Of a stretch of 64,000 bases of DNA, positions 1 to 64,000 are shown one piece after another. Numbering within the stretch: the stretch's first letter is position 1; each line of letters starts with the position of its first letter. A program made the position numbers. Origin of the DNA: an uncultured Gemmatimonadales bacterium (GTDB taxonomy: Bacteria; Gemmatimonadota; Gemmatimonadetes; Gemmatimonadales; GWC2-71-9); NCBI GenBank assembly GCA_963821525.1, contig CAWGED010000019.1, positions 544,001 to 608,000 on the forward strand. The letters run 5' to 3'.

Positions 1-3000
1 CCGTGGCTCGGCGCCCATGCCCTGCACCAAGACCCAGGTCAGGACATTGAGCGCGATGATTCCGTAGGTCGCGTAGGGGGTTCGGAGGGTCGGATTCTCG
101 TCGCGAATCGGGAACATGCCTCAATATACGGCTCATTTCCCGCCCTGCTTCGGCGTGCAAATGGGTCGCTAACCCGGCATATTTCCCAGTCCTCATTTCA
201 CAGCCTTGGTAGGGCGGCGAGTGTCAGGAGGTCTTCCCTGTCCAGCCACGATCGCGACCGCTCCGTTCTCGGGGTACCCCGCTCTATTGGCGGGGTGTTC
301 GTGAGTCTGGCCGGAATGGTGTGCCTCGGATTGGTTGCCGCAGCTAATCCTGTCTCGCGGGTTACTCCGCGCTCCATGGATGGAATCGAGGCCAACGACA
401 ATCGCACCCCGGCTGGCCAGCTTCGGGATGATACGCTCAGCATCCAGCTAGAGGTCAGAATGGGCACGTGGCGCCCTGAGGCCGACAGCGGTCCGGCCAT
501 CGAGGTCGCGGCCTTCGCCGAGGCTGGTAAGCCACCACAGGTGCCGGGTCCGCTGATTCGGGTTAAGGAAGGAACCACGATTGCGGCGACCATCAGGAAT
601 GCCCTCCCGGACTCAACCATCTCGATTTTCGGCCTTTTAACTCAGTCGGCCGGTCTGAAGGACAGTTTGACCCTGCGGCCCGGAGAAGCCCGCCAGGTTC
701 GCTTCACGGCAACAGCGGCCGGCACCTACTTCTACCGTGCGGTGCTCGGCAAGCATTCACCGGACCGGCACGTCAACGATGAACGCGAGCAGGTGGCGGG
801 GGCTCTGATCGTGGATCCTCCGGGCCCTGTCGCTCCCGACCGGATTCTTGCGATCAATATCTGGGGTAGCCGGGTGGACTCAGCTGTGTATCGTCCGATT
901 GACTATCGGAACGCGATCACGATCAACGGCCGCTCCTGGCCCTACACCGACAGGATCGAGGCGACCACAGGAGATACCGTGCGCCTGCGGGTGATCAACC
1001 TGAGCGGCGCGCACGCATCCCATGCATCTGCACGGGTTCTACTACCAGGTACTGTCCCGGGGCGACGGTGTCTCAGACACGGTCTACGCGGCCGACGATC
1101 GGCGCATGGTCGTCACCGAGGAGATGCGGCCCTTCACGACGATGGCGATGAGCTTCGTGCCAAATCGTCCCGGCAATTGGCTCTTTCATTGTCACGTAGG
1201 CTTTCACGTCGTGCCGCAGTCCCGGCTCAACAAGGTGGCGGTTGGTAGCCATGACGAGATGTCCCACGATCCCATGGTTCACATGGCGGGGCTCGCGGTA
1301 GGGATCACCGTCCATCCGGCTCCGGGCTGGACGCCTCCGAACCAGGGAAAGGCGCGTCGCCTGCATCTCTACGTAGATGAGGGCAAGCAGCGGTATCGCG
1401 CGAAGCGGGCACTCGGATTCGTCCTGCAGCGAGGTGCCAAACCCCCGCAGCCCGACTCCGTGGAGATTCCCGGCTCAGTGCTGGTGCTCACTCGAGGACA
1501 ACCGACCGATATCGTCGTCACCAACCGGCTCCGCGAAGCCGCCGCGATCCACTGGCACGGGGTGGAATTGCTGAGTTACTCCGATGGTGTTGCAGGATGG
1601 AGTGGCGATGGCCAACAGCTCGCTCCGGTGATAGCACCGGGCGATTCATTCACGGCGCATCTCCTCCTGCCTCGCGCCGGCACGTTCATCTATCACACGC
1701 ACCTCAACGACCTGGAGCAGCTCTCCTCCGGTCTGTACGGGGCCATCGTGGTCCTCGAGCCCGGCCAGCGCTTCGATCCCCTCAGAGATCATGTGTTCGT
1801 GGCGGGATGGGATTCACCGAATCCCGAGCCGCCTCGGATTCTCATCAATGGTGATTCGCTGCCCGCCCCGCTTGAGCTGAAGTCCGGGGTGTCCGCATCG
1901 GTTCCGCTTCATCAACATTGGATTGGCGCTGCCCGTTGGATTCGGGATATACCAGGACAGCTCACTGGTCCGCTGGCGTCGAGTGGCCAAGGATGGCGCC
2001 GACCTTCCGGCGCATCAGGCGGTCGAAGTCAACGCGCTGCAGGCGGTCCAGGTCGGGGAAACCTACGATTTCGAATGGACTCCGGAGCGAGGAGAGTACC
2101 AGTTGCGGGCGGGGCCGCCGGGAAAGCCGTTCTGGGTGCAGCGGTTGGTTGTCGATGGTCGATAGTCGATGGTCGTGGGTCATGAGTCATGAGTCTTGAG
2201 TCTTGAGATCTCCGAAATAGTACCCAGGGCCACTGGCTACCACCCAATCACTGACTATCGACCATCGACCATTGACACACGACCCACGACTCAAGACTCG
2301 CGACCACCATTGACCATCGACGATAAACTGTCGGCCGCACTCTCCGACCGCTACCGCATCGAGCGGGAGCTGGGACAGGGAGGCATGGCTACGGTGGTCC
2401 TGGCCCACGACCTCAAGCACGATCGCCAGGTCGCGATCAAGGTCCTGCGGCCGGAGCTCGCGGTCATGATCGGGAGCGAGCGGTTCCTGCAGGAAATCCG
2501 GGTCACCGCAAGGCTTCGTCATCCCCATATCCTGCCGCTCTACGACTCGGGCGCCGTGGACGGCGTCCTGTACTACGTCTCCCCTCTCGTCGAAGGCGGT
2601 TCCCTCAAGGCGCGGCTCGAGCGCGACGGCAAGCTGCCGGCGGTCGAGGCGGTCCGCATCGCGCGCGAGGTGGCGGACGCGCTGGATTTCGCCCACCAGC
2701 GCGGGGTGATCCATCGCGACATCAAGCCCGACAACATCCTGCTCGAAGCCGGACACGCGGTGATCGCGGATTTCGGGATCGCACGAGCGGTCTCCGCGGC
2801 CGGCGCGGATCGGATGACTCAGGCCGGGGTGAGTGTGGGAACGCCGGCCTACATGAGTCCCGAGCAGGCCAGCAGCGAACTGGAAATCGACGGGCGGGCG
2901 GATATCTACGGGCTGGGAGTCGTGCTCTACGAAATGCTGTCGGGGAAGCCGCCGTTCACCGGGCAAACTCTGCAAGGCTTGATCGCGGCCGTCCTGACCC

Positions 3001-63000: not shown

Positions 63001-64000
63001 GATGGGCGGACGATCGCATTCTTCATGGGAAAGACCGGCCAAGGCCAGATCGCTACCATCCCGGCAACCGGTGGTCAGCCGGTACAGCTCACGAGATCGG
63101 TATTCAGCGGCCTTCAAGAATGGTCGCCCGACGGCCGTCGGCTCGCGTTCGTAACTTTTACGGCGAAACAGTTCGAGGTGGCCATCATCGGAGCGGACGG
63201 TTCGAATCTCCGCACCCTCACGTCCAATGACGTGTGGGACCTCTTTCCGGTGTGGTCGCCGGACGGCTCAATGATCGCGTTCGCCACCCAGAACAAGGGC
63301 CACTACGACATCGCCGTGATGGATTCGTCGGGCGCGAACCTGCGGGTTCTTACCAACACGCCGGCAGACGAGGCGGCGCCCCAGTGGACGCCGGACGGAA
63401 AGTCGTTGGTCTTCTCTTCAGTCAACGAGAATCGCAAGCTGGTGACGGTACGGGTCGAGTCGTTGCTGGCGAGGAGTGCTCCTTGAAAGTCGACTGTCAT
63501 GTGTCGTCGGTCGTCACGACTCACGACTGCAGACTCTCAACTCTAGACCCACGACCAACGACCATTGACCCTCGACCAGCGATCTCCTCCGCACTCGCCG
63601 ACCGCTACCGCATAGAGCGGGACCTGAAGCACCACCACAAGGTGGCGATCAGAGCTCCAGCCGAACTCGCGTCGTAAGTCTTGAGTCGTAGGACCCACGA
63701 CCACTGACCATCGACTATCGACGGCCGCCCAGCGACTTTTCCGACGGCCGAGACCAATGATGGCGGGCAGAGGTCATCCGGGTAGCTTTAGAACGCACTC
63801 CTGATCCAAATAACGCGAGACAGACCAGCACCCCCGCTTGGGGGAATAACATGCTGAGCCGGCGGTGAGGTAACCGTTATAACGCTCCTCGACACCAAGG
63901 CACGCTCGGAGCGACCGTCTTTCCCGTCTCCCCGTCTCCCATCTCCCAGGGTTAGGCCTTGACCATCGACCAGCGACTTTCGACCGCTCTCGCCGACCGC

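Follow-up and report, generated by a model that had tools for sequence, protein, structure and literature searches.

A probably old tandem array of receptor Ser/Thr kinases with conserved kinase heads and constrained PD40 and TPR sensors in a Gemmatimonadales genome

The stretch of DNA analysed here (the window; 64,000 nucleotides of contig C19) belongs to a 4.33-Mb Gemmatimonadales MAG (G000), which is 81% complete with many frameshifts, and holds most of a tandem array of genes for receptor Ser/Thr kinases (Table 1). A kinase-domain HMM made from the window's own paralogs was run against the whole genome translated in all six frames, giving 123 pieces which merged into 87 kinase heads, 65 being single-piece and 22 multi-piece. 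The plus strand of C19:546.3-619 kb carries 21 of these heads as well as one 28-residue relic, amounting to 24% of the genome's heads within 1.7% of its DNA. This is in keeping with the genome-wide survey's note, which had counted 86 Pkinase gene calls, 19 of them arrayed on one strand. Eighteen heads start in the window, the last continuing past its end. Pfam confirmed the Pkinase domain in each array member and assigned PD40 or another beta-propeller to 15 of them, a TolB_N-like/LpoB domain with TPR to five (heads starting at 9264, 17810, 35899, 38352, and 52212), with one being degraded. The two kinds of sensor are unrelated, and the kinase and PD40 propeller architecture described in the note applies to the 15, not to the five or to the degraded member.

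Table 1. Features of the kinase array, numbered along the window unless prefixed with C19 (contig coordinates).
Feature	Position	Strand	Evidence
Kinase head starts in window, first half	2325, 9264, 15183, 17810, 20823, 30335, 33021, 35899, 38352	+	HMM
Kinase head starts in window, second half	40730, 43461, 46666, 49534, 52212, 54612, 57341, 60107, 63974	+	HMM
K1: receptor Ser/Thr kinase, TM helix, PD40 ectodomain; intact	2196..4922	+	Pkinase 170.5 bits, PD40 243.5 bits; motifs and TM present
K2: kinase, TM, LpoB/TolB_N-like and TPR; intact, distant head	9264..12395 (start is head start from HMM)	+	Pkinase 156.3 bits, LpoB 21.7 bits, several TPR families
BTAD/winged-helix transcriptional regulator, directly upstream of K3	14360..15157	+	BTAD 63.2 bits, Trans_reg_C 27.1 bits
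K3: kinase-TM-PD40; intact, distant head	15075..17795	+	Pfam
K4: kinase-TM-TPR; intact, start overlaps K3 stop by 4 nt	17792..20716	+	Pfam, ORFs
K5: kinase-TM-PD40; intact, tight-clade head	20742..23450	+	Pfam
S9 prolyl-oligopeptidase-family peptidase with PD40, non-kinase	27233..29392	+	Peptidase_S9 164.3 bits, PD40 54.7 bits
K6: kinase-TM-propeller, C-terminal third out of frame	30224..32995	+	Pkinase 170.9 bits, Gmad1 propeller 25.8 bits
K7: kinase-TM-PD40, head in 3 frame pieces	33021..35645	+	Pfam, HMM
K8: kinase (35836-36858) and TolB_N/TPR (36836-37972), split by 1-nt frameshift	35836..37972	+	Pfam
K9: kinase (4 pieces) and TPR ectodomain; dense 1-nt insertions in G000	38352..40619	+	Pfam, HMM
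K10: kinase (4 pieces) and PD40 ectodomain (2 pieces)	40730..43374	+	Pfam, HMM
K10b: degraded kinase head, no recognisable sensor	43461..44177	+	Four HMM pieces, profile positions 76-122 missing
Kinase N-terminus relic, 28 residues, overlapped by transposase ORF	46009..46092	+	HMM positions 1-28, E 2.7e-08
IS200/IS605-family Y1 transposase	46035..46523	-	NF033573 58.6 bits (cut-off 55)
K11: kinase-TM-PD40; intact, tight clade	46549..49350	+	Pfam
K12: kinase-TM-PD40; intact, tight clade	49534..52194	+	Pfam
K13: kinase and TPR ectodomain, one frameshift; start overlaps K12 stop	52191..54541	+	Pfam, HMM
K14: kinase and PD40 ectodomain, several frame pieces	54273..57270	+	Pfam, HMM
K15: kinase-TM-double PD40 propeller; intact	57329..59959	+	Pfam, model
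K16: kinase and TM ORF (60089-61558) abutting 10-repeat PD40 ORF (61555-63486)	60089..63486	+	ORFs, Pfam
K17: start of kinase-TM-PD40 gene C19:607956-610631, cut by window end	63974..64000	+	HMM, Pfam
PP2C phosphatase, beyond this window	C19:613403-614290		PP2C_2 39.6 bits

Non-kinase genes within the array code for two multicopper oxidases, a penicillin amidase, an NAGPA-like protein, the S9 peptidase and the BTAD regulator, the ORF of the latter overlapping that of K3. The PP2C phosphatase reported in the array is real, though outside the window. What had been called a RAYT is indeed a transposase, passing the IS200/IS605 model; the REP-associated model (REP_Tyr_transpos), however, gave 21.3 bits, under its cut-off of 80.

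The kinase domains of the intact members score 156-177 bits against Pkinase (PF00069, cut-off 31.7), which identifies them as Hanks-type Ser/Thr kinases, and the nearest solved relative is PknB of Mycobacterium tuberculosis (E 5e-58). All 11 intact members possess the G-loop, VAIK-type lysine, HRDxKPxN, DFG, and SPE/APE motifs, by which their cytoplasmic kinase is active-looking. A hydrophobic peak follows at most about 70 residues past the kinase in each of the 11 (19-residue Kyte-Doolittle mean 1.65-2.76), with exactly one window of at least 1.8 in nine members, three in member 553204 and none in K15 (peak 1.65). The topology read from these hydropathy windows, in which one TM segment separates the kinase from a large C-terminal repeat domain, is that of a receptor Ser/Thr kinase, in agreement with the survey. 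An AlphaFold model of the K15 ectodomain (pLDDT 92.4, pTM 0.90) is all-beta, and Foldseek matched it to tandem propellers (2ymu, 1nr0) and TolB (2hqs, 1c5k) with E-values of 1e-15 to 6e-19, 2w8b also being among the TolB structures matched (TolB matches about 1e-16). The TPR-type member K8 has a TolB_N-like domain (PF04052, 28.4 bits).

In pairwise comparisons of nine intact paralogs of the propeller type, identity averages 0.71 (0.58-0.84) for the kinase and 0.25 (0.17-0.40) for the ectodomain. These means are close to the 73-77% and 22-28% given previously and bear out the claim of a kinase head conserved far beyond the sensors. The heads do not, however, form one uniform set. A tight clade (heads 20823, 30335, 46666, 49534, 57341, 63974, C19:610660, and C19:618163) has amino acid identities of 70-84%, whereas heads 2325, 9264, 15183, 17810, and 60107 (the last being that of K16) are only 45-66% identical to it, four of these five (not 2325) grouping with kinases elsewhere in the genome, in the case of K2 with those on contig C11. 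Tight-clade heads have nucleotide identities of 70-78%, dN of 0.13-0.24 and dS of 0.69-1.61, and on these estimates synonymous sites between heads are saturated and the paralogs are old. The note had itself named old duplications as an alternative, and, with a paralog dS of 0.7-1.6, such duplications account for its 22-28% ectodomain identity, which is partly also due to different propeller subfamilies having been aligned together. The closest paralog of K15 is K7 (54% over residues 172-870); the head of K15 clusters with K12, and its ectodomain with K7/K3.

Eight of the 11 intact members have an ectodomain in a relative that is 53-99% identical, versus 27-39% for the best paralog in their own genome, and K5 (91% at nucleotide level in G003) is a ninth intact member with an ortholog. 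In the relatives' DNA compared, no close ectodomain ortholog was found for K3, K4 and, when only full-length ORFs are considered, K5; K3 also lacks a close counterpart in the G003 and G004 DNA compared, its best nucleotide HSP being about 650 nt at 69-70%. Orthologs in G003 include those of K1 (ectodomain 96.6%, kinase 92.2%), K17 (99.4 and 98.1%, respectively) and K11 (93.6% at nucleotide level), while in G004 the ectodomains of K11 and K12 are matched at 83.3 and 93.7%. Compared with its G004 ortholog K12 is a mosaic, with identities of 72-87% in the first ~450 nt and mostly 92-100% in the remainder, with short dips to 79-88%. Within the genus, kinase identity between orthologs is 91-98% and ectodomain identity 81-99%, compared with at most 86 and 39% between paralogs, so that paralogs group by orthogroup across species, as in the birth-and-death model of Nei. 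Ectodomain orthologs at 56-66% identity occur in more distant Gemmatimonadales MAGs, and one (60.7%, locus L017 of G014) in a genome that the search itself grouped into another family. All 20 relatives searched, from three families of the order, gave dozens of matches and tandem arrays each. Pattern matches in species genomes numbered 626, of which 624 encode relatives, and 66 of the 67 loci kept have Gemmatimonadota titles.

Between orthologs, omega ranges over 0.02-0.14 for the kinase and 0.03-0.22 for the ectodomain (for K5 against G003, 0.03 and 0.15), ectodomain values of 0.38 and 0.54 occurring only in the frameshifted K6. None of 132 ectodomain windows of 60 codons exceeds 1, omega peaking at 0.40 within the ectodomain and at 0.42 along the kinase/juxtamembrane edge, values which at gene-wide or 60-codon scale leave room for positive selection at a few ligand-contact sites. 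By this measure the ectodomains are under purifying selection, and the uniformity of the heads likewise stems mostly from it. The genome-wide survey's note had proposed a diversifying receptor repertoire with fast-evolving ligand-binding propellers and gene birth and death, similar to plant or animal receptor-kinase clusters. Such a repertoire, understood as one under diversifying selection with quick gene turnover as in immune receptor clusters, would be compatible with paralog identities of 17-40% in the ectodomain versus 58-84% in the kinase, with whole units present or absent between congeners, with a degraded head and a head relic beside a transposase, and with an ectodomain dN above kinase dN in most ortholog pairs (median near 3-fold). 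However, sensor dN/dS is below 1 at gene and window scale, ectodomain orthologs persist in distant MAGs and in another family, paralog dS is saturated and most of the broken genes are probably assembly errors, as discussed below. At both scales the proposal is largely refuted, and we consider it quite improbable.

The uniformity of the heads had also been attributed to either gene conversion or purifying selection. Both act in the family, but no recent conversion tract is present inside the focal array, where the most similar paralog pair reaches 82.5% nucleotide identity over 790 nt and Sawyer-type runs are only 30-56 nt, sitting on the most conserved motifs. In G015, a 4-contig, 99%-complete genome, C4:494370-495156 and C4:502306-503092 are 99.4% identical and gapless over 787 nt with sharp edges, the ectodomains of these genes being 26.6% identical. 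Outside the array, G000 itself has tandem genes spanning C19:867278-871566 (heads 868595-869404 and 870768-871577) in which the final ~700 nt of the head carry six mismatches, against 73.5% identity over the remainder of the protein. Among 36 genomes in which two or more full-length members were sampled, eight contain a pair whose heads are at least 89% identical but whose ectodomains fall short of 45%, and four other MAGs from different studies show graded head identities of 77-97% at nucleotide level with an abrupt fall at the kinase end. AU tests reject congruence of the kinase and ectodomain trees (p 3.4e-4, 2.8e-4, 1.1e-5, and 0.002), for groups picked after both trees had been seen and with 'quick' tree searches on 28 sequences, including two long branches. 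Concerted evolution is thus indicated for the G015 and G000 pairs and in the eight genomes, but for no pair of the focal array, and head-limited gene conversion appears to be an occasional addition to head uniformity.

It is unlikely that old duplications and a slow kinase account for everything with zero gene conversion, the discordance and tracts being alignment, long-branch, or repeat-assembly artefacts. The array's head dS of 0.7-1.6, its best paralog identity and the post hoc naming of the AU groups are in line with this, and artefacts of repeat polishing or assembly are possible in principle for the near-identical tracts in relatives. In addition, kinase identity between orthologs falls only to ~76-79% where the ectodomain reaches 41-44%, because of which a constraint plateau explains much of the decoupling. 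Nevertheless, this reading leaves unaccounted for the sharp-edged tract in a genome as contiguous and complete as G015, the second tract in G000, the graded heads with their sharp drop in four other MAGs, and all four AU tests. At the other extreme, the array heads could be undergoing homogenisation now by frequent conversion, as might be read from runs of 120-180 nt at 90-98% nucleotide identity at the 5′ end of several heads (e.g. K7/K11 and K15/K18) and from 5 of 55 pairs passing a Bonferroni-level permutation test for run length. These runs, however, fall on the G-loop, HPHI, and GTPxYMSPEQ motifs, and the permutation takes no account of rate heterogeneity. Moreover, genus orthologs are much closer to each other than paralogs are, dS is ~1 and, instead of paralog heads clustering per genome apart from their congeneric orthologs, the reverse is observed, making ongoing homogenisation very improbable.

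Given the incompleteness and numerous frameshifts of the MAG, the array might be suspected to be a mis-joined or inflated repeat. Its collinearity across ~80 kb with the independent assemblies G003 and G004 and the similar arrays of the high-quality genomes G014 and G015 speak against this, and because copies differ by more than 17% at nucleotide level they can be neither collapsed nor duplicated repeats; the chance of such an artefact is negligible. The frameshift fragments are a different matter. At 33550 (K7), 36847/36848 (K8), 38877-39028 (K9), 41206, and 42641 (both K10), contigs of one to four independent soil/rhizosphere runs and G003 disagree with G000. At the K7 and K8 sites contigs of three runs and G003 have one base fewer; in K9 five listed 1-nt differences were found (contigs of one to two runs, with 13-15 gaps per contig piece), and the K10 differences are from two runs at 41206 and four at 42641. 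The heads of the K7 and K9 orthologs in G003 are each in one piece. The run contigs come from other strains, and G000-specific frameshifts could be real mutations. Between G000 and G003 the breaks are genome-specific, K10b excepted, and in G014 and G015 all 13 heads are in one piece. Most frameshifts are probably errors of a long-read-type assembly rather than signs of decay. K6 is likely frameshifted, as suggested by its low-complexity out-of-frame tail in the alignment, while K16 is either split or frameshifted. K10b, the sole member broken in both G000 and G003 (four pieces in the latter also), is a candidate true pseudogene, the relic being the only other.

G000 and G003 are collinear at 84-97% nucleotide identity. 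K15 and K16 (6.5 kb) are missing from their syntenic place in G003, which in turn carries an additional 2.9-kb unit; the two also differ in the BTAD-K3-K4 block, and head counts are 21 versus 19. Whole-gene gain and loss of this kind between congeners fits a slow birth-and-death process. The orthogroup grouping accords with the birth-and-death locus of the survey, and the unit-sized indels and head counts show turnover, with K10b and the relic as the only candidate pseudogenes.

The locus is therefore best read, with a probability of roughly 0.75, as a tandem array of single-pass receptor Ser/Thr kinases in a soil Gemmatimonadales bacterium which is old and has been inherited vertically, is constrained, has heads that are episodically converted and turns over its units slowly. 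Each gene product would comprise a cytoplasmic PknB-like Hanks kinase, one TM helix and a periplasmic sensor of ~570 residues, predicted to be a tandem double PD40 (TolB-type) propeller in 15 members and TolB_N-like with TPR in five. Tandem duplication predates the divergence of the window's genus, and for K15 and K20 that of related families, the paralogs then being maintained as separate orthogroups. Purifying selection acts on kinase and sensors, the kinase being ~3-fold more constrained (median), and head uniformity derives chiefly from this constraint, to which homologous recombination between heads adds episodically. Conversion tracts cover almost exactly the ~800-nt kinase-coding segment, the sole part similar enough to recombine, and decouple the history of the head from that of the sensor; of the recent conversions, one affects another kinase pair of G000 and the other the homologous array in a relative. 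Slow change of the array itself occurs via gain or loss of entire gene units. With regard to function, each sensor may bind a different periplasmic or envelope ligand, leading to kinase dimerisation and autophosphorylation, and the similar heads may feed a common set of cytoplasmic substrates. The PP2C phosphatase could reverse the signal. A candidate target of the kinases is the BTAD regulator encoded directly before K3.

The sensor of M. tuberculosis PknD is an NHL-repeat six-bladed propeller. The array members are like PknD in architecture (kinase, single TM, extracytoplasmic beta-propeller), with their Hanks-type kinase most similar to PknB. However, no NHL family was found in the array sensors with Pfam (E ≤ 0.001), PD40 scoring up to 279 bits instead, and the K15 model resembles tandem propellers/TolB; PknD-like membership was rejected on these grounds. 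They also differ in having two propellers (in the K15 model), a diderm periplasmic sensor and dozens of paralogs instead of one. TolB, a periplasmic Tol-Pal component encoded in the tol-pal operon, is secreted and combines a TolB_N domain with a single PD40 propeller. It is matched by the PD40 propeller fold and by the TolB_N-like domain of K8, but in the array the domain follows a kinase and TM helix within one protein and the propeller is tandem; with neither a Pal partner nor tol-pal neighbours, identity with TolB was also rejected.

Near-identical kinase tracts in neighbouring genes with divergent or unrelated sensors are reminiscent of interlocus gene conversion in bacterial multigene families, although in contrast to those the focal array is without a recent tract, tracts being found in G015, other MAGs, and another G000 pair. 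Receptor-kinase and immune-receptor clusters of plants and animals are tandem arrays with conserved signalling and divergent sensor modules and unit-wise changes in copy number. The present array shares these features by analogy only; unlike such clusters, its sensors carry no diversifying-selection signal and its orthogroups are stable across deep divergences.

For Planctomycetota and Myxobacteria, enlarged sets of membrane Ser/Thr kinases bearing WD40 or TPR arrays in the periplasm have been described, together with tandem duplicates and with kinase clades confined to single species, which are attributed to "duplication and/or recombination" (PMC11032199, with Perez et al. 2008 cited there). 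In view of these comparable repertoires, the claim of novelty for a bacterium was overstated. As portrayed there, 'Ca. Uabimicrobium amorphum', Gemmataceae, and Myxobacteria share with the present array the cytoplasmic Pkinase domain, membrane span, periplasmic propeller or TPR and many paralogs, some adjacent (PMC11032199). The Gemmatimonadota array differs in its PD40/TolB-type double propellers in place of WD40, in its small genome (4.3 Mb carrying 87 heads, one quarter of which stand in one conserved co-oriented array), and in having old orthogroups rather than species-specific clades, with head-limited conversion tracts at the nucleotide level.

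The genome of the focal Gemmatimonadales MAG (G000; 4.33 Mb, 19 contigs, 64% G+C, 81% complete) was searched in six-frame translation with a kinase HMM built from the window's own paralogs, and the resulting 123 HMM pieces merged into 87 kinase heads (the N-terminal kinase segments of about 800 nt), about 20 per Mb. A quarter of these lie in the array on the + strand of C19:546.3-619 kb, which has 21 heads and one 28-residue relic, 18 starting within the window. Members are numbered in order as K1 to K17 in the window, the last of them cut by its end, and K18 to K20 beyond it, with one degraded head (K10b). 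Pkinase was identified by Pfam in every member, with PD40 or another beta-propeller downstream of the kinase in 15 and a predicted TolB_N/LpoB-like domain with TPR repeats in five (K2, K4, K8, K9, K13), the latter type being assigned by Pfam alone, as K15 is the one sensor that was modelled. All 11 intact members possess the G-loop, VAIK-type lysine, HRDxKPxN, DFG and SPE/APE motifs, and each has a hydrophobic peak within the roughly 70 residues that follow the kinase. The 1.8 cut is exceeded by exactly one window in nine of them and by three in another, while the K15 peak is 1.65. Among solved kinases, M. tuberculosis PknB is the closest (E 5e-58). The K15 ectodomain, modelled with 40 homologs, gave a confident all-beta structure (pLDDT 92.4, pTM 0.90), for which Foldseek returned tandem double propellers (2ymu, 1nr0) and TolB (2hqs, 1c5k) at E-values of 1e-15 to 6e-19, the low TM-scores (about 0.3) being normal for models of two domains.

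Features of the array and its surroundings (C19 positions count along the contig, all others along the window)
Feature	Position	Strand	Remarks
Two multicopper-oxidase genes	1-2185 and 4950-6756		Flank K1; each split into overlapping ORFs (frameshifts)
Small ORFs	12226-12711, 13001-13582, 13625-14134	-	No family match
BTAD-K3-K4 block	12388-20826		Matched by just 3.2 kb in G003
K10b head	43461-44177		Degraded
IS200/IS605 transposase ORF	46035-46523	-	Overlaps 28-residue kinase N-terminus relic (46009-46092, + strand)
K15 and K16	57231-63754		Missing in G003
K15 ectodomain	58241-59956		Modelled sensor
K16	60089-63486		Kinase and TM ORF; stop overlaps ATG of separate 643-residue, 10-repeat PD40 ORF
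Tandem kinase gene pair of G000	C19:867278-871566	-	Outside window, about 250 kb from array

The array is interrupted by multicopper oxidases, a penicillin amidase, a BTAD regulator, a NAGPA-like protein and an S9 peptidase. The multicopper-oxidase pair around K1 (66% identity over about 1.45 kb) is a duplicated non-kinase unit. The PP2C phosphatase that the genome-wide survey's note placed inside the array is indeed there, though outside the window, while its 'RAYT' transposase is of IS200/IS605 type by NCBIfam (58.6 bits, cut-off 55; RAYT model 21 bits, cut-off 80). This transposase was the sole family found by Pfam and NCBIfam among ORFs that are small or on the minus strand (12.2-14.1, 23.8-24.2 and 43.9-46.2 kb). 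Synteny with the same-genus relative G003 breaks off between 44262 and 46687, around the transposase and relic. Stop and start codons overlap by 4 nt at K3/K4 (17792), K12/K13 (52191) and the two K16 ORFs (61555), which suggests co-transcription and translational coupling of consecutive genes. The two ORFs of K16 may reflect a receptor that is truly encoded in two parts, or else a further frameshift; G003, which lacks the gene, offers no comparison.

Many members had been taken as fragments. Most of these breaks are likely consensus errors of the assembly, because at the frameshift sites 33550, 36847/8, 38877-39028, 41206 and 42641 contigs of one to four sequencing runs, as well as G003, differ from G000 by one base, because breaks in G003 fall in other genes (K10b alone is in pieces in both), and because all 13 heads of G014 and G015, high-quality relatives of other families, are unbroken. 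This is not proof, as the contigs come from other strains: the runs are independent soil or rhizosphere samples, none of them with half of the sampled words (best share 0.35). The parts left uncovered, and the many 'joints' between kinase heads, come from paralog cross-mapping. Homopolymer context proved uninformative on its own as a test of the G000/G003 indels, with 112 of 168 single-base gaps lying outside homopolymers and many in compensating pairs.

Among nine intact propeller-type paralogs, mean identity was 0.71 for the kinase and 0.25 for the ectodomain (the C-terminal part after the TM segment), reproducing the contrast first reported. The heads do not form the one uniform set that had been described: within the tight clade of most alike heads (eight from the array and C4:64590) amino acid identity is 70-84%, yet K1, K2, K3, K4 and K16 are only 45-66% identical to it and, K1 excepted, group with kinases elsewhere in G000.

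The same note had read the array as a fast-diversifying birth-and-death receptor repertoire, to which selection and age both run counter. For ortholog pairs of G000 with G003 or G004, another member of the genus, omega is 0.02-0.14 in the kinase and 0.03-0.22 in the ectodomain, K6 alone giving 0.38 and 0.54 with its ectodomain partly out of frame. None of 132 sixty-codon ectodomain windows from seven ortholog pairs exceeded 1, and most of the highest values (0.3-0.4) lie around the juxtamembrane/TM region or towards the C-terminus. Although sensor dN is about threefold kinase dN (a median with wide scatter), the sensors clearly remain constrained at the scale of the gene and of 60-codon windows. 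Low paralog identity is a matter of age, not of rapid diversification.

The tight-clade heads share 70-78% nucleotide identity (dN 0.13-0.24, NG86 dS 0.69-1.61), with dS not below that between distant paralogs, and no two paralogs of the array match better at the nucleotide level than 82.5% (over 790 nt). Dozens of matches were present in all 20 relatives searched (four of the same genus, eight of the same family and eight from two other families), with co-oriented arrays in several; counterparts of the array are recognisable in relatives from each of the three families searched. In species genomes 624 of 626 pattern matches encode K15 relatives. The 67 kept public loci comprise 66 with Gemmatimonadota names and one, L045 (JALHOG010000161.1, 2950 nt), an Ilumatobacteraceae MAG contig with a 54% match, which may be mis-binned. 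In a comparison of 186 full-length ORFs with both kinase and ectodomain, taken from G000 and the loci fetched, 8 of the 11 intact array members had a relative's ectodomain at 53-99% identity, while their best own-genome ectodomain paralog was only 27-39% identical. The G003 and G004 orthologs match at 81-99% (ectodomain) and 91-98% (kinase), and more distant MAGs at 56-66% and 74-86%. One distant ectodomain match (locus L017, from G014) belongs to another family by the search's grouping, and K15 has a full-length match at 57% in G015. K5 has a 91% nucleotide ortholog in G003, broken there, and K3 and K4 had no close counterpart in the fetched relatives' DNA. Given ectodomain orthologs within the genus and in other families, the duplications therefore predate the genus, and those of K15 and K20 the family split.

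Across the 186 proteins, median ectodomain identity stays near 30% over kinase identities of 45 to 90%. Constraint, which makes kinase identity level off, accounts for part of this flatness: kinases are still 76-79% identical in ortholog pairs whose ectodomains have fallen to 41-44%. In 8 of 36 genomes with at least two sampled members there are also pairs, often of neighbouring genes, that combine heads 89-99% identical with ectodomains only 23-38% identical. The sharpest case is in G015 (4 contigs, 99% complete), where C4:494370-495156 and 502306-503092 match over 787 nt at 99.4% with no gaps; the edges of this tract lie 12 nt (start) and 11 nt (end) within the head limits set by the HMM, and its flanks fall to about 40%. 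Four other MAGs show 77-97% nucleotide identity over the head and the same sharp 3′ edge. G000 itself has a tandem pair (see table) whose heads differ at 35 of 810 nt, 29 of these within the first 112 nt and six over the last ~700 nt, while the remaining 446 residues are 73.5% identical; this appears to be a recent head-centred conversion tract.

No recent conversion tract was found within the focal array by longest-run permutation, paralog nucleotide matches or sliding windows, the last never giving more than four 60-nt windows in a row at ≥90%. In a Sawyer-type longest-run permutation of 11 tight-clade heads, 5 of 55 pairs passed Bonferroni correction; these were rejected as conversion evidence because the runs (30-56 nt) coincide with the G-loop, HPHI and GTPxYMSPEQ motifs and because the permutation takes no account of rate heterogeneity. 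K12 and its G004 ortholog are 72-87% identical over the first ~450 nt and mostly 92-100% over the rest, with short dips to 79-88%. No donor for the divergent 5′ 450 nt was found in G004, where the best paralog reaches 83%, and this mosaic may come from conversion by an unsampled copy or from allelic recombination.

For 28 tight-clade proteins (of G000, G003, G004, G014 and G015) the kinase tree and the ectodomain tree disagree. In K15, the ectodomain falls with K7-type sensors and G015_L004_1315, the head with K12. With groups named after the trees were seen, 'quick' tree searches and two long branches, AU tests on kinase data rejected the K15 ectodomain clade (p-AU 3.4e-4; its three-row core 2.8e-4) and K5 with its G015 ectodomain partner (1.1e-5), and ectodomain data rejected the two G015 head-twins as sisters (0.002).

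A tentative reading, to which we give a probability of roughly 0.3, is that of an order-wide Gemmatimonadales receptor-kinase supercluster evolving in modules, with recombination confined to the ~800-nt head, one signalling module and ancient separate sensors. If so, one signalling module would be shared by many receptors whose sensors (PD40 double propellers, TPR) are unrelated. The common head would let them go on using common substrates or a common phosphatase, or pairing with one another as heterodimers, and the sensors would last as old specificities, each conserved on its own. Such a supercluster would parallel, in bacteria, the modular concerted evolution of receptor families in eukaryotes. 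Gemmatimonadota abound in soil, and we know of almost no experimental work on their signalling. The array's periplasmic PD40 or TPR sensors, in about 20 orthogroups, form a well-defined set for a search for ligands, and the array is a natural system to study domain-limited gene conversion in bacterial receptors.

Beyond the observed architecture, catalytic motifs, fold of one sensor and evolutionary pattern of the array kinases, a signalling scheme may be proposed. Each periplasmic sensor would bind a ligand and the kinase would be activated by dimerisation and autophosphorylation, as in PknB-type kinases. Since the heads are alike, the kinases may share a common substrate set, and the array's PP2C would reverse the signal. 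The BTAD regulator upstream of K3 is a possible target by analogy with the kinase/regulator pair PknH-EmbR, and the 4-nt overlaps make co-transcription of the array genes plausible.

Literature searches on Gemmatimonadota kinases, propellers, kinome, gene conversion and concerted evolution returned no paper on such kinase arrays. The available text of one source describes expanded membrane Ser/Thr kinases in Planctomycetota (and Myxobacteria as cited there) with a cytoplasmic Pkinase and periplasmic WD40 or TPR arrays, their tandem duplicates and species-specific kinase clades being put down to 'duplication and/or recombination' (PMC11032199). Compared with what is set out in that text, the array adds PD40 double propellers, a high kinase density in a small genome, deep conservation and nucleotide-level evidence of head-limited conversion. 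PD40 is among the domains commonly tethered to prokaryotic kinases, according to the accessible part of PMC2877116. Clustered 1,050-bp repeats, not named in the portion available, occur in one Gemmatimonadota strain (PMC11237797), and the available part of PMC11316326 has nothing on these kinases.

Turnover within the genus affects whole units. Collinearity between G000 and G003 extends over about 80 kb (84-97% nucleotide identity), with 21 and 19 array heads respectively; besides the differences in the table, an additional 2.9 kb separates K12 from K13 in G003. G004 has at least three separate clusters of related heads (C1:1387-1452 kb, C1:2010-2032 kb and C5:189-213 kb), so the kinase family is arranged differently within the genus. 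Elsewhere in G000, the interior segment C8:76262-82241 matches the beginning of contig C7 (C7:1-6000) over about 6 kb at 90%, a kinase gene included, owing either to a duplication that has since diverged or to a strain variant in the bin. The segment 12000-14300 has unusual skews (GC skew +0.083, AT skew +0.121), and within it 12459-12731 has a 288-nt match at 81% to C8:155772-156055. The region upstream of K8 resembles that of K6 (74% over 908 nt), so a 27-residue kinase N-terminus match within it, at 35675-35755 and some 150 nt before the K8 head, may have been left by an earlier recombination.
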